Below, in pieces: positions 5,229 through 15,675 of a stretch of 64,000 nt of DNA. Made by a program: the position numbers and the translations under genes. Source of the DNA: Escherichia coli O157:H7 (GTDB taxonomy: Bacteria; Pseudomonadota; Gammaproteobacteria; Enterobacterales; Enterobacteriaceae); assembly GCF_013167455.1 (NCBI RefSeq), contig NZ_CP038328.1. One strand, 5' to 3'. The notes under the pieces are model-generated. The model was not told the DNA's origin and ran no database searches. It saw nothing but the letters and a program-made list of their open reading frames with translations. Positions within the stretch are counted from its first letter, which is position 1. Each line of letters starts with the position of its first letter.

Positions 5229-8200
5229 TTAATGGAAAATGACGTCAGGTGCGCTTAACGCCTCACTCAAATTAAACACATCAAGTTCGGCAAAAGTGAC
5301 GGATTTATTGTCACGGTACACTCGAAGAGAACGGAAGCTCATTAACGCTTTGCTATCAACATTGTAGTGGTTAAAACCGGGTGAAAACTTAAGGACCAGC
5401 CGGTACTCACCCAGGTCATAGACAAATGCGTCCTCATAACCTGACTCCCAGCCTTTGTATCGCATTCCCATAAGTTGCCCAACGGTAGCGGATTTACCTT
5501 CCCAGCGAGTCAGGCTGTTACTGGTTGACTCATCAGGTGTGAGCAGCACCGTGCGGCGCGCCAACTGGCGAAAAGGCGGCATAATTTCGTAATCGGCAAA
5601 AAGCTGTGCAAATTCACTGCGCATTTCTGCTGTCATTTCTAACGGGTGGGCAATGCCAATCAGAGCGTCCGCAGGCAGGTCAATTGGCTCATCTTGCGCA
5701 TTGCAGAACCCCCCCTCTGCGGCCACACGAAAGGCGTTGAGTAAACGACGCGGTTCATTTGCCGGATAAACCCCCCATATTAATCGCTGGGTAACCAGAC
5801 GGGTAAAGGGATGATTAACAAACAGAGAATGAAAATCTGCCAGCGACCAGCGTCGGGTGGTACGTAGGGCAGCTTCAAGACGCGGGAGCAGGTTTTTGCT
5901 CACCTGAGTAGCATCTTTTTTTAGCCCTTTTAGTCGGGCCAGTGCCTCGGGCGCTTTCAGTTGATCGTCATCGGCGCGCAACCGGGGAACGCTTTTCTGG
6001 CGAACGTTTTGCTGATCAAAGATAACCGGGTTGAGGTTTTCATCGAAGCGAACGGTAAACTGCCGGGGACCAAAATCAAAACTCAACGCCTGCGGATCAT
6101 CAAGGCCCAGGGTTGGGACTAATCTGTCCGCTAGCTCTTCCTGGCTTAGCCCGCGATTTTCTGCGACTACCTGAAGAAATTCCGCCGCGTTATCACGTAA
6201 GGGGCGGGATTTAGCCCGTTGCGATATATGATGCAGCTGTATCAGCGCCATATCATTATTCATCAGGGTAAGGATGTTCAGGCCGCTGACAGCACGGGCA
6301 GATTTGCCTTGTGGCCAGGCGAGGATCTGTGTTGTTAGATCCCGTGCCGTGCTTTCGTCACCAAAGAGACTTAACGCCAGAAATGCCCAGTTGTCTTTTG
6401 CGGGGGCACCAGCTTGTTGCCACGCAGTGAAGAGATCCCAGGCAAAAGCTGCCAGCGTTTGTGGCTGGCAGAACGTTTTCAGTTGTTCCAGCCCGCTATA
6501 AAAACGTCCCCCCTGGGTAAAGCGCAGCATTTCGCCGATAATTTCCAGAGCGTCATCGGTAACAGGTTGATTATTAGTGATAAGGCGCGGCCTGGACCAC
6601 ATTTGCGGATGCCAGAAATCAGGGGCTTTTGGAATGCGTGCCGGGTAAATTTCCATGGGACCCTGTTTCAGTAAATGCTCCAGGGCAGGCCATACATCTG
6701 TACGCTGCCAACGATTGGCTACAGTTTGTAGCAATTCGCCATGCCCATGTTCGTAAAGTAAACGCAGGGCAAGTAATGCAGCTTCGCTTTTATCGCTAGA
6801 TTTGGTGAAGACAAGAGGGATAAGTGCAGTAGCCGTATGTTCCGGCCATTGTAAAATCCACTGGCGAGCCAGATCACGCTGCGCCGCGAAACGTCGCCAG
6901 ACGCGGGCAACGGGCAGGGCCAGTTCTGTTGCGCCGAAATTTAAAATTAACGGAAATGTTTCTTTTGGACGATGTGAAAAAGCCAACAGCAGACCTGGTA
7001 GCGCATCCAATCCGAGGATACTGAGAAAATAGTCCTCTCCCGCGAACAGATGCTTTTTCTCATTGATACGCAGCCAGAAAGTCAAAGCCATCTCACGCGG
7101 CAACTGTGCCAATAAATACAGGTTCCAGACACTCTTTTCCGGACGATAACGTGAGTAGTTGTCATTTTCCCATATGTTAATTAACGCTTCTATGTGACCG
7201 CTGCGGAGCGCCTGTTCTGCTAATTGTGCTTCCGGGGAGTTCCAGCCATTCAGGATCTCTTCAACCCGCCCCTGGTAGTAATGCCACTGAACAATGAGTG
7301 AATTGCGTGCAGCATCCAGTTTTCCAGGGAGTATATAATTCAAAAACAGCCATACATCATCCCCAAAACCCAGTTCCTGTAATACAACTCGCCCACTTTT
7401 TTGTTCCATGCGTTGCGCAAGAGATTCCGTGCTGAAATAACGGGCAGACTCAGTGGCGGCAAGCCTCTCTCGTTCGCCTGGTTGCCAGTAAACTTGCGGA
7501 GTTAATTCGAGCCGTGCCAAATCAAGACGTGGAGCTGTCATTTTTTTCTTACTACGCCACGGTGGTGAAACGAGGATTTCAGGCAGATTGCTGTTATCGG
7601 TGCCATCAATAACCGGTTTTGGCAGTGCCGATAAATAACTCTTCAGCACTGCCCTGGCTTGAGTACTTAACCACGACATCACTTCTGCTGCCAGTTGTGG
7701 CTGCGATGCCATCAGCGTTTGTAACAGCGTACGCCAGTATTCTTCTCGAGCTTTTTGCTGTGCAGGCAGCTTTTTGTCTTCGATGATTGGATAACCAGGG
7801 CGGGCTGGTGGTTCTTTTAACGCCAGCAGTTCTGCCAGTGCGGCGAGCGTCGCATGGGGGAAGTTTTTACTGTATTTAGCCACACGTTGCAGGCTGGGTT
7901 TGTTTTTATCAGCAACTAACAGCAAGGTGCGGATGACTTGCGGATGGTTAATTTGTACCAGCAGACTGCCGCAATCTTCTTTATGAGCATACATTGCCAG
8001 GCGCGGAACGGCTGCCAGTCCTTGTTCGCGCAAAAGGGAGGCGCAGGCCGCGTAGCCGAAGCGGTTTTCTTGTGACATGTAGCTGGCTTCGCGATCGCTA
8101 AATACGTCCAGGCCCCAGTATCGTTCGAGTTTTTTTACCGCCGTATTATCAGTAGCAACGACCTTTAACCACTCCTTTGAATGGAGACTTGACCGGGAGC

Positions 8201-8858
8201 TTTCAAGACTGGCGAGTTCATTGGCTATTTCAGGTTTTTCCGGGAGGATCAGCGCAATAAAAGGACGGCGAATTTTGGGTATTCCTGGCAGTGCGGCAAT
8301 GAGTTTATCGGCACAACGCTGCCAGCAACTTTCCTCTGCCAGCGACAGATGCTTACGCAAACGGAGATCGAAATCGTTATAGGTCGCGGAGCCATAACCG
8401 TAGCCATAGTCCTCGTCCTGATACTGCAAAGTGACGACCAGTGAGTCACTCTCATAACGCCGCGCAATGCACTGACGCGATATCACTACATCCGTCGCAT
8501 ATTCCAGCCCCTCTTGTTGCACGATTTCATCAAGTAACTGCTGGCTGTCATTTTGCGCGATACAGATCAGAGCCGCCATGGTAAGGGCTGGGATTGACGG
8601 TTTATGCTCGCCAGTCAAATTGATTGCCTGCTGGATGGCGGACTGCCACTCCAGTGAGCATTTATCATAATTCCAGGTGATATTTTCCTTCTGGCCTGCT
8701 TGTTGTAGTAATTCATCTCCCAATGTCTGGATGAGACTTCCAGTGATAACGGACACTGGTTCGCCCGGCCAGCGACGATGACTGAGCGGCGTTTTGCCTT
8801 TTTTATATTTCAGTTCCAGTTGGGCGTTATCCGCCAGCCACGGTAATTCCTTGTCCAT
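5229..8858 (-). CDS. yehI: YehI, large molR-family protein with DUF4132-like C-terminal region, lacking the WGR N-terminus
   Basis: 1209-aa track ORF; C-terminal half shares motifs with the two upstream paralogs (GAPAKDNWAF, DDTARKLT, FDETLKP, YADYEL); N-terminus begins at the LPWLADN motif that follows the WGR domain in the paralogs. Confidence 0.85.
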   Translation of the reverse strand: MDKELPWLADNAQLELKYKKGKTPLSHRRWPGEPVSVITGSLIQTLGDELLQQAGQKENITWNYDKCSLEWQSAIQQAINLTGEHKPSIPALTMAALICIAQNDSQQLLDEIVQQEGLEYATDVVISRQCIARRYESDSLVVTLQYQDEDYGYGYGSATYNDFDLRLRKHLSLAEESCWQRCADKLIAALPGIPKIRRPFIALILPEKPEIANELASLESSRSSLHSKEWLKVVATDNTAVKKLERYWGLDVFSDREASYMSQENRFGYAACASLLREQGLAAVPRLAMYAHKEDCGSLLVQINHPQVIRTLLLVADKNKPSLQRVAKYSKNFPHATLAALAELLALKEPPARPGYPIIEDKKLPAQQKAREEYWRTLLQTLMASQPQLAAEVMSWLSTQARAVLKSYLSALPKPVIDGTDNSNLPEILVSPPWRSKKKMTAPRLDLARLELTPQVYWQPGERERLAATESARYFSTESLAQRMEQKSGRVVLQELGFGDDVWLFLNYILPGKLDAARNSLIVQWHYYQGRVEEILNGWNSPEAQLAEQALRSGHIEALINIWENDNYSRYRPEKSVWNLYLLAQLPREMALTFWLRINEKKHLFAGEDYFLSILGLDALPGLLLAFSHRPKETFPLILNFGATELALPVARVWRRFAAQRDLARQWILQWPEHTATALIPLVFTKSSDKSEAALLALRLLYEHGHGELLQTVANRWQRTDVWPALEHLLKQGPMEIYPARIPKAPDFWHPQMWSRPRLITNNQPVTDDALEIIGEMLRFTQGGRFYSGLEQLKTFCQPQTLAAFAWDLFTAWQQAGAPAKDNWAFLALSLFGDESTARDLTTQILAWPQGKSARAVSGLNILTLMNNDMALIQLHHISQRAKSRPLRDNAAEFLQVVAENRGLSQEELADRLVPTLGLDDPQALSFDFGPRQFTVRFDENLNPVIFDQQNVRQKSVPRLRADDDQLKAPEALARLKGLKKDATQVSKNLLPRLEAALRTTRRWSLADFHSLFVNHPFTRLVTQRLIWGVYPANEPRRLLNAFRVAAEGGFCNAQDEPIDLPADALIGIAHPLEMTAEMRSEFAQLFADYEIMPPFRQLARRTVLLTPDESTSNSLTRWEGKSATVGQLMGMRYKGWESGYEDAFVYDLGEYRLVLKFSPGFNHYNVDSKALMSFRSLRVYRDNKSVTFAELDVFNLSEALSAPDVIFH

Positions 8859-14800: not shown

Positions 14801-15675
14801 GCGATATCCGGGCGTTCAGGGAGCAGTAACGCCGCAAAAGGTTGCCGTGCGGGGGATAGCGTCGGAATGGCGGTGAGTACTTTATCTACACAGCGTTGCC
14901 ACTCATCTTCTGAAGCGAGTGAAAGATGATGACATAGACGTTGATGCTAACTAGGTAGCGATTCTGCTTCGTGATTAGGTGGAATGATGGTGGTTACTGC
15001 GCCTTTTACTGGTTTATATTTGAGTTGAAGGGCAAAAAGGACGATTTCAACGGCGCTTTCCAGACCACAGCGAATGACTAAGTCATCGACCAGTTCATCT
15101 GCAGAGTAAGAGTTCCAAAAACTCCAGAGCAATGCTGCATCAGATTGCGCACTCCCTGTCTGTTGATTATCCAGAATTCGCCTTTGTAACTCAGCAAAAG
15201 CCTGCTGCCAGTTTTCAGGATAAGAGCGGTAATTGTTGTCGGGATCATATGCCCTGGTGTTATCTGCAATACGCTTCCATATCTCACCGTCTTTGCGCAG
15301 ATAATTGATCTCTCTGGGGCGAGAGCGATGAGGAAAAGCAAATCGGTTAATATCGTCAGTTACCGGAATAACTGCATCATCAGCCAGCCACGGGCGTTGG
15401 TTTTTACTCTCAGGGGAAGTTTCAACTTCAGGAGTGGCTTTGGTGATGGGGGGGATATGCACGTTTGCTGAAGCATTTTCCACATAGCCTTTTTTCGTTT
15501 TCTCCGCGATAAGCTTCAGTTTCGCTTTTTCCGCTGCTGCAACATCCGCAAAACTTTTTATCTGGCTTTGCCCGTTAGTGCCGACTTTGCCCCAGTTGAT
15601 ATGCAGCTCGTTTCCCTGCTGCTCAACCGCCCAGAATTTATGTGATTTTTCGTCCTGATAGATAAAGTGTCTCAT
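11866..15675 (-). pseudogene. molR: molR-like giant protein (WGR domain N-terminus), interrupted by one in-frame TAG at 14947-14949
   Basis: Track ORFs 14947..15675 and 11866..14757 lie in the same minus frame; the 189 nt between them are open in that frame. 1269 codons end to end, close to the ~1264 aa I recall for intact MolR. N-terminus MRHFIYQDEKSHKFWAVEQQGNELHINWGKVG. Confidence 0.65.

Follow-up and report, generated by a model that had tools for sequence, protein, structure and literature searches.

A stretch of 64,000 nucleotides (nt) from Escherichia coli O157:H7 (assembly GCF_013167455.1, contig NZ_CP038328.1), herein referred to as the window, carries next to metG an array of three adjacent genes of the molR/yehI family, two of which are disrupted. 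The question raised by this locus is what such large paralogs do and what the disruption of two of them means. We propose, with a confidence only somewhat above even, that the paralogs act as interchangeable subunits for target recognition in a MoxR-VWA remodeling machine that is induced by damage. Beyond the first-pass annotation of the locus, the analysis revealed a conserved coupling of such genes to yehL, yehM, yehP, and yehQ (yehLMPQ), as well as LexA (SOS) control of the array. Within the E. coli LexA regulon, molR/yehI is among the few members without a known role, and it is thereby tied to a MoxR-VWA-SWIM system of five components, which is conserved and widespread in bacteria.

The region is 100% identical to many E. 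coli O157:H7 chromosomes, and the locus can be assigned with high confidence to the O157:H7 version of the chromosomal metG-proximal molR/yehI array. The three co-oriented paralogs, herein referred to as A, B, and yehI, lie on the minus strand within positions 5229-15675 of the window, with spacings of 9-12 nt. All coordinates of the first-pass annotation were retained. The features of the locus are as follows.

15685..15700, minus strand: LexA (SOS) box in the promoter region of the array, found by a CTG-N10-CAG pattern scan
11866..15675, minus strand: gene A (WGR, alpha-solenoid, and DUF4132), a pseudogene by translation, comparison with intact alleles, Pfam on an intact allele, and the RefSeq label 'internal stop'
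8868..11853, minus strand: gene B of the short allele class, a pseudogene by open reading frames (ORFs) and comparison with an intact allele
5229..8858, minus strand: yehI, the intact third paralog, 1209 amino acids (aa), by ORF, Pfam, and AlphaFold
4850..5167, minus strand: yehK, a 105-aa ORF (also in RefSeq), 61 nt downstream of yehI
2521..3609, minus strand: yehL, a MoxR-type AAA+ ATPase (AAA_5), by RefSeq, weak NCBIfam matches, and Pfam on the Intestinirhabdus ortholog
231..2510, minus strand: yehM (DUF5682), a pseudogene with an amber codon at position 510 and the RefSeq label 'internal stop'
1..238, minus strand: 5' end of yehP (VWA, CoxE type), cut by the window edge, by Pfam VWA_CoxE on the Intestinirhabdus ortholog
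15783-15806: metG terminator, with the LexA box downstream of it

In RefSeq, the minus-strand order is metG, a DUF4132 gene interrupted by an internal stop, a WGR gene together with a partial DUF4132 gene, yehI, yehK, yehL, yehM, yehP, and yehQ; the same array genes with the same lesions are annotated in O157 genomes. In this annotation, yehL is labeled as ATP-binding, yehM as DUF5682 with an internal stop, yehP as VWA, and yehQ, which lies outside the window beyond yehP, as SWIM and incomplete. The gaps between the array genes are 12 nt (A-B), 9 nt (B-yehI), and 61 nt (yehI-yehK), and purine-rich AAGGA- and GGAAAGAG-type stretches are found just 5' of the downstream start codons. The three paralogs appear to be co-transcribed, and yehK is probably the last gene of the array operon. 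With high confidence, the array can be described as the variable, multi-copy front end of a conserved system, with yehL, yehM, yehP, and yehQ as its constant back end.

The box upstream of the array, CTGGATAAAATTACAG, is located on the minus strand 9 nt before the ATG of gene A and has a spacer with 80% A+T. Among the 26 matches to CTG-N10-CAG in the window, it is the only one in the metG-A intergenic region. The box is identical in strains K-12, W, CE-O153H30, and A36, whichever paralog leads the array, and the 140-nt metG-proximal intergenic region is nearly invariant in the same four strains, whether A or B comes first. A box at the equivalent place, CTGGATGTATGCACAG, was found 8 nt before the ATG in Intestinirhabdus alba. 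The molR gene appears in a published list of LexA-regulated genes whose SOS box is known, with reference to Fernandez De Henestrosa 2000 and Courcelle 2001 (PMC6590174), and its promoter is also a mapped target of BglJ-RcsB, by which it is activated (PMC3950696). Control of the array by LexA in Escherichia is considered highly probable, with LexA binding and damage-dependent induction taken from the literature. In Deinococcus radiodurans, the drA0165-drA0166 operon, in which DRA0166 is a DUF4132 protein, and the WGR gene DR2173 are strongly upregulated on depletion of DdrO, the damage-response repressor of Deinococcus (PMC8533742). Thus, two unrelated damage regulons, LexA acting on molR and DdrO acting on DRA0166 and DR2173, control members of the DUF4132 and WGR families.

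Pairwise alignment and Pfam agree with the first-pass annotation that the three adjacent minus-strand genes are molR/yehI-family paralogs with a shared DUF4132 half, and the possibility that these ORFs are unrelated to each other was not borne out. Gene A aligns with yehI end to end at 32% aa identity (E 3e-171); its identity to gene B is 61% in the C-terminal ~490 aa and 38% in the N-terminal ~365 aa. At the DNA level, similarity among the three copies is nearly gone, and only two short stretches remain. With 32-61% aa identity and almost no DNA similarity, the duplication must be regarded as ancient, which contradicts the recent serial duplication suggested in the first-pass annotation.

For genes A and B, the Pfam search used intact alleles of other strains, cut to 1200 aa; the O157 copies align to these alleles, and both are named DUF4132 in RefSeq. 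The WGR domain (PF05406) was found at the N-terminus of the intact A allele (E 1.8e-18) and of the intact B allele (E 1.1e-17). The DUF4132 domain (PF13569) was found near the C-terminus of the intact A allele (E 5.5e-51), the intact long B allele (E 3e-51), and the O157 yehI (E 1.2e-46). In O157 yehI, Pfam matched DUF4132 only and no WGR domain, so the earlier assignment of a WGR N-terminus to two of the three copies stands; the start of yehI is at the position matching A residue 95. The conserved region revealed by phmmer is larger than the Pfam DUF4132 domain and covers roughly residues 545-1145 of yehI.

Structural models were built with AlphaFold from 48-sequence alignments. In the model of YehI residues 540-1209 (mean predicted local distance difference test score, pLDDT, 90.1), a helical repeat region is followed by an alpha/beta module, which was also modeled alone (residues 915-1209; pLDDT 92.0, predicted template-modeling score 0.85). 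The modeled parts of YehI thus consist of a helical solenoid and a compact alpha/beta module. Residues R1002, H1016, R1044, H1071, D1089/Y1090, Q1098, R1101, and G1136/W1137 of YehI are invariant. Neither YehI nor a 48-sequence profile of the C-terminal module gave a match in PDB (best E 0.28); no catalytic fold was found, and no nuclease, protease, TIR, or pore effector was recognized. With high confidence, the build of the paralogs, which are ~1000-1270 aa long, is a WGR domain, absent from yehI, a long HEAT/ARM-like alpha-solenoid, and a conserved ~450-aa C-terminal module with DUF4132. Additionally, three database proteins of ~870-1120 aa (P0019, P0024, and P0118) have a WGR N-terminus joined to a yehI-type C-terminus, and 46-69% of the yehI length is matched in them at 94-97% identity. 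Such proteins suggest deletion fusions between neighboring paralogs in some strains.

The family has no established function, as was stated previously, and literature searches turned up no functional study of DUF4132, DUF5682, the yeh genes, or a combination of MoxR, SWIM, and WGR. The DUF4132 family is very large: 5683 clusters at 50% identity were found by phmmer (E <= 1e-3). Orthologs of yehI were found in other Escherichia species, Klebsiella oxytoca, K. grimontii, and Serratia fonticola. Beyond Escherichia, the genomic context was scanned in one genome per species, which yielded 68 loci.

A DUF4132 gene and homologs of yehL, yehM, yehP, and yehQ were found together in 41 of the 68 loci. 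In all of these loci except two from Burkholderia, the DUF4132 gene is located directly upstream of yehL-M-P-Q homologs that are co-oriented with it and arranged in that order. The coupled loci span gamma-, beta-, and delta-proteobacteria as well as actinobacteria, and belong to Serratia, Erwinia, Variovorax, Massilia, Burkholderia, Xanthomonadales, delta-proteobacteria and myxobacteria, Actinoplanes, Streptomyces, and others. Compared with their E. coli counterparts, the proteins of these loci show a graded identity of 56-85% for YehL, 53-79% for YehP, 34-63% for YehM, 24-54% for YehQ, and 27-41% for the DUF4132 proteins. No homolog of yehK was found by tblastn in any of the 68 loci outside Escherichia. 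Intestinirhabdus alba has one WGR-DUF4132 gene at the same site next to metG, and genes for AAA_5, DUF5682, VWA_CoxE, and YehQ-like proteins start 35 nt downstream of it; the three domains were assigned by precomputed Pfam matches. The E. coli yehL has weak matches to the NCBIfam GvpN and MadB AAA models, and the intact YehQ has weak matches to Pfam SWIM (E 0.005). In the window and other E. coli loci, as in Intestinirhabdus, a DUF4132 gene is adjacent to and co-oriented with MoxR AAA_5, DUF5682, VWA, and SWIM genes.

Tandem, co-oriented DUF4132 genes recur in variable number upstream of a single yehL. The longest arrays were found in Massilia (loci L018, L028, L031, L032, L042, L044, and L048). 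Massilia aquatica has six copies in one locus and four more in an overlapping locus, M. mucilaginosa has seven copies within a 23-kb locus, and M. rubra has four to five copies per locus. Arrays of three genes were found in Rhodoferax, Polaromonas, Tahibacter soli, Virgisporangium, and Actinomadura. Most of the ORFs in the Massilia arrays are full length (about 1190-1270 aa), tightly packed, and mutually 40-65% identical. The same Massilia genomes also carry orphan copies without nearby yehLMPQ, and some distant relatives stand alone. The three-gene array of E. coli is a modest case of a family-wide pattern, in which one conserved motor module is combined with a variable number of diverged large subunits. 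In one locus (L014, 6883-12213), a 1776-aa relative has a histidine kinase-type ATPase domain (HATPase_c) fused to WGR and DUF4132; its gene is preceded by a response regulator gene and followed by a MoxR (AAA_5) gene.

Comparison with systems already described places the locus as follows. In K-12, molR (yehF/yehH') and yehI, as annotated in RefSeq and EcoCyc, represent the same locus, family, promoter, and LexA box as in O157, with the same downstream yehK-yehLMPQ genes, and the 140-nt intergenic region differs between these strains at two positions. YehL has given its name to one of the seven MoxR subfamilies of Snider and Houry (PMC3893208). As in the MoxR-VWA pairs RavA-ViaA, CbbQ-CbbO, and NorQ-NorD, a gene for an AAA_5 MoxR protein is located beside a gene for a VWA (CoxE-type) protein; these pairs are ATP-driven remodeling chaperones (PMC3893208, PMC7159879). 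In contrast to the MoxR-VWA pairs studied, the Yeh system also includes DUF5682, a SWIM protein, and one to many WGR-solenoid-DUF4132 proteins, and in Escherichia it is SOS-controlled.

A second resemblance is to the MoxR-vWA ternary conflict systems (VMAP, iSTAND, FtsH, beta-propeller), which were described by Kaur, Burroughs, Iyer and Aravind 2020 and are frequent in actinobacteria, myxobacteria, and planctomycetes, often in multiple copies (PMC7159879). The Yeh system shares with them a MoxR-vWA core combined with large, variable, repeat-rich proteins. However, the variable component of the Yeh system is encoded by a separate upstream gene, whereas in the ternary conflict systems it is fused to the vWA protein, and no caspase, TIR, or trypsin effector domains were found in the Yeh proteins, unlike in those systems. 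The text of that paper mentions neither SWIM nor WGR (PMC7159879).

A third resemblance is to the eukaryotic PARP1-3 proteins, with which A and B share a WGR domain (at the N-terminus of A and B, by Pfam) and a link to the DNA-damage response; unlike PARP1-3, they have no PARP catalytic domain. The WGR domains of PARP1-3 bind DNA breaks, and by analogy the bacterial WGR domains may bind nucleic acids.

The following working of the proposed machine is put forward with low to moderate confidence. DNA damage would lead to cleavage of LexA and thereby to transcription of the array. Each paralog would serve as an alternative target-recognition or adaptor subunit, in which a nucleic-acid structure or a client protein would be recognized through the WGR domain together with the polymorphic solenoid, while the conserved C-terminal module would dock onto an assembly of YehP, YehM, and YehQ. 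A YehL hexamer would then spend ATP and thereby remodel the bound complex or release it, in the manner of other MoxR-VWA pairs. This last step, the ATP-driven remodeling of a client that the VWA partner holds, is modeled on those pairs. Additional paralogs would broaden the target range of one motor. Counted in single fetched loci, there would be up to six or seven such subunits, and about ten when overlapping Massilia loci are combined. More tentatively, and with less probability than the role proposed for the paralogs, the WGR-solenoid-DUF4132 arrays and YehLMPQ may together form an undescribed, phylum-spanning system, in which one MoxR-VWA-SWIM motor is deployed on DNA damage with many interchangeable recognition subunits that would process lesions or protein-DNA complexes or sense invading DNA.

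Several observations weigh against the proposed machine. The predicted link between the DUF4132 proteins and YehLMPQ is drawn from gene order only. Some family members, including those in 27 of the 68 loci, have no yehLMPQ within 10 kb. In O157 and most other E. coli, an insert of about 0.3-1.2 kb with zor-orz genes parts the array from yehL, and no LexA-like box was found before yehL in the window. The only surviving copy in O157, yehI, has no WGR domain. A scan for CTG-N10-CAG upstream of the arrays in 55 non-Escherichia loci gave no box whose spacer is A+T-rich (0 of 55; four loci had GC-rich matches only), and it covered this motif and not the actinobacterial or myxobacterial LexA motifs; SOS control may therefore be clade-specific. 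Finally, K-12 and O157:H7 tolerate the loss of array members, which makes the function dispensable in at least some niches.

The two broken copies of O157:H7 carry lesions of different types. Gene A has 1269 codons with a single in-frame TAG, noticed already in the first-pass annotation, at codon 243 (window 14947-14949); in two intact alleles this codon is TGG, so the O157 change is TGG to TAG. Gene B has a length of 2986 nt, which is not a multiple of three, and is therefore out of frame. It is split into a 426-aa WGR ORF (10573-11853) and a 579-aa DUF4132 ORF (8868-10607). Alignment to an intact, 98.3% identical 3033-nt (1010-aa) allele of strain Res13-Sevr-PER07-33 traced the previously reported frameshift to a 47-bp deletion at about window 10645. 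The third gene, yehI, is an open 1209-aa ORF and thus intact, as described previously.

The shorter middle region reported for gene B is real, but it is a feature of an allele class intact in Res13 and O55:H7 and not a lesion of O157. The short B ORF is also intact in O55:H7 CB9615, even though RefSeq splits it there into 'partial' pseudogene pieces (in that strain, locus L089, A is at 13550-17350 and the 3033-nt B at 10505-13537). Residues 1-521 of short B are 46.5% identical to residues 1-534 of long B, and residues 516-1010 are 93.5% identical to residues 770-1264; residues ~535-769 of long B are missing. The N-terminal half of short B was found in 410 of the 5426 complete E. coli genomes, about 300 of which belong to the O157 lineage. 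A simple deletion in O157 as the origin of short B was ruled out, since other strains carry the short ORF in intact form, and the N-terminal half of short B represents a separate, deeply diverged lineage.

Partner genes are affected as well. In yehM, codon 510 (window 981-983) has changed from CAG to an amber TAG, while eight other strains, O55:H7 among them, have CAG or CAA, and O157 yehQ is flagged as incomplete by RefSeq. Only yehI, yehK, yehL, and yehP are still open in O157:H7. For both amber codons, in A and in yehM, recoding and read-through were rejected because the homologous codons in other strains are TGG and CAG or CAA. Since the decay also hits yehM and yehQ, it looks like a loss of the whole system: O157:H7 is apparently losing it, while K-12 seems to have lost one array member independently. 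K-12 has two copies (long B and yehI), and O157:H7 has three, with the extra A and a different, short class of B. Like O157, K-12 carries a broken WGR-DUF4132 gene, and the lesions are independent, namely a frameshift and a stop in B of K-12 and the A amber, the B 47-bp deletion, and the yehM amber in O157. In O55:H7, gene A is 87.8% identical to that of O157 and has its own nonsense codon at position 764, which points to an allele replacement by recombination and an independent inactivation.

In other strains the array is mostly intact. All array and yehLMPQ genes are intact in W, HUSEC2011, and 2013C-3181, which have two copies (B and yehI), and in CE-O153H30, which has three. Three copies were also found in Res13, with the array, yehK, yehL, and yehM intact and yehP and yehQ outside the fetched sequence; in A36 and 736, where yehK is frameshifted and nothing else is; and in SJC33, where the array is intact and yehL and yehM are broken (RefSeq flags an internal stop in yehM). 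UID2309220031, with three copies, has frameshifts in yehI and yehM, and O55:H7 CB9615, also with three, has the nonsense codon in A and no lesion in the others. The two-copy strain K-12 has B broken into yehF and the pseudogene yehH. The differential decay described in the first-pass annotation therefore applies to O157, where two copies are disrupted, but is lineage-specific, the array being intact in CE-O153H30, A36, 736, Res13, SJC33, W, HUSEC2011, and 2013C-3181. The pseudogenes are ordinary, already annotated cases of lineage-specific gene loss, not a new kind of element. The usual laboratory references, K-12 and O157:H7, carry broken copies, and this may partly explain why no phenotype has been reported. 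The system is directly testable in strains with intact clusters: E. coli W, HUSEC2011, and CE-O153H30.

An A-type gene was found in 1629 of the 5426 complete E. coli genomes (about 30%), and some B-type sequence in 5406. Gene B exists as three allele classes, of which the two long ones share 76% aa identity. For each gene, substitution rates were obtained from 6-11 alleles. The mean nonsynonymous (dN) and synonymous (dS) values are 0.061 and 0.30 for A, 0.089 and 0.38 for B, and 0.030 and 0.15 for yehI. They are 0.002 and 0.15 for metG, and 0.004-0.016 and 0.12-0.16 for yehL, yehM, yehP, and yehQ. Thus, dN of the paralogs is about 15-45 times that of metG, with dN/dS of about 0.2. The variation within E. 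coli is concentrated in the N-terminal ~750 codons; the C-terminal module is tightly conserved in B and yehI, with a proportion of nonsynonymous differences (pN) of 0.006-0.03, and moderately conserved in A, where pN is 0.03-0.06. No 100-codon window with pN/pS above about 0.5 was found in a sliding-window search for positive selection, a crude pairwise comparison of 6-10 alleles that ignores recombination. The paralogs are unusually polymorphic, and they are under purifying selection. Their intact ORFs in several strains together with dN/dS of about 0.2 show that they are selectively maintained.

As a rival explanation, the array and YehLMPQ may provide immunity against phages or other mobile elements. 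The paralogs would then be diversified sensors of the DNA ends or proteins of invaders, the system would be linked with prophage induction through SOS control, and the pseudogenes would reflect the fast turnover of a defense locus. We consider this explanation unlikely, although a number of observations fit it: the recurrent paralog arrays, the deep allelic divergence with three classes of B, the allele replacement between the sister lineages O55:H7 and O157:H7 (A genes 87.8% identical), the patchy taxonomic distribution, and the presence of MoxR-vWA cores in predicted conflict systems (PMC7159879). One relative adjoins a DUF4011 helicase gene and an Apyc1-like gene, and in E. coli a type I toxin-antitoxin pair is inserted inside the locus. 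Nevertheless, A, B, YehI, YehK, YehL, YehM, YehP, and YehQ have no meaningful match in PADLOC-DB 2.0 (the YehL match at E 0.063 is at the level of chance). Among 20 ORFs flanking the relatives, the only PADLOC matches were three to 'MzaA', all of which are RpoH sigma-32 by NCBIfam, and the other nameable ones have housekeeping functions (a MocR-type regulator, KefC, an antiporter, and PcaD). Moreover, no nuclease, protease, TIR, or pore effector was recognized. The locus occupies a fixed core-genome site in nearly all E. coli, as indicated by the B matches in 5406 of 5426 genomes, pN/pS is never above about 0.5, and YehL and YehP are conserved across phyla far beyond what is usual for defense genes.

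The suggestion in the first-pass annotation that the array follows a pattern of conflict or variable-surface systems is supported by the recurrent arrays and the polymorphic N-terminal two thirds; positive selection in 100-codon windows, a link to the surface, and a known defense family were not found. A WGR start followed by a modeled helical solenoid and alpha/beta module would give the paralogs, which are taken to be cytoplasmic, no link to the cell surface. The 'MzaA' hits, located downstream of a yehQ homolog in Xanthomonadales, were rejected as defense genes, being RpoH sigma-32 by NCBIfam. In three Xanthomonadales loci (L019, L026, and L056), rpoH is co-oriented and immediately follows the Yeh-like cluster.

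Still less probable is that the genes are functionless remnants in E. coli, with an array that is eroding everywhere and an organization without functional meaning. Pseudogenes are indeed found in O157:H7 (A, B, yehM, and yehQ), K-12 (B, now yehF and yehH'), O55:H7 (A), SJC33 (yehL and yehM), and UID2309220031 (yehI and yehM). Insertions of mobile elements are known as well: IS1203 lies under the A match in O157:H7 FRIK2455, and the blaCTX-M-15 transposon TnMB1860 was inserted in the metG/DUF4132/yeh region of an ST131 sublineage, in 184 isolates (PMC9334617). Against general erosion, full-length ORFs of 3.0-3.8 kb stay open in most of the sampled strains, dN/dS is about 0.2, the C-terminal module is under strong constraint, the gene order is kept across phyla, and the LexA box is conserved.

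That the paralogs are transcriptional regulators of molybdate metabolism, independent of yehLMPQ, is very improbable: the legacy labels 'molybdate metabolism regulator' and 'MolR family transcriptional regulator', still present in some records and papers, are all that favors it, whereas Pfam and NCBIfam found only WGR and DUF4132 and no helix-turn-helix or molybdate-binding domain (a single HTH_WhiA match has E = 10), the Deinococcus molybdate genes are unchanged when the DUF4132 and WGR genes are induced (PMC8533742), and the conserved partners are AAA+ ATPase, VWA, and SWIM proteins rather than molybdenum genes.

Two further observations concern the surroundings of the array. A nucleotide search with window positions 5000-16000 as the query gave 219 matching places on plasmids. 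Two OrzO-P antitoxin RNAs (Rfam RF02083, 99.9 and 88.8 bits) lie in tandem on the minus strand of the yehK-yehL gap (about 3610-4849), at window 3721-3796 and 4332-4405, each with perfect-looking promoter pairs nearby. They belong to the type I toxin-antitoxin locus zorO/zorP-orzO/orzP, known from EDL933 (z3289/z3290). The zor-orz genes are absent from K-12, where the yehK-yehL gap is 0.3 kb.

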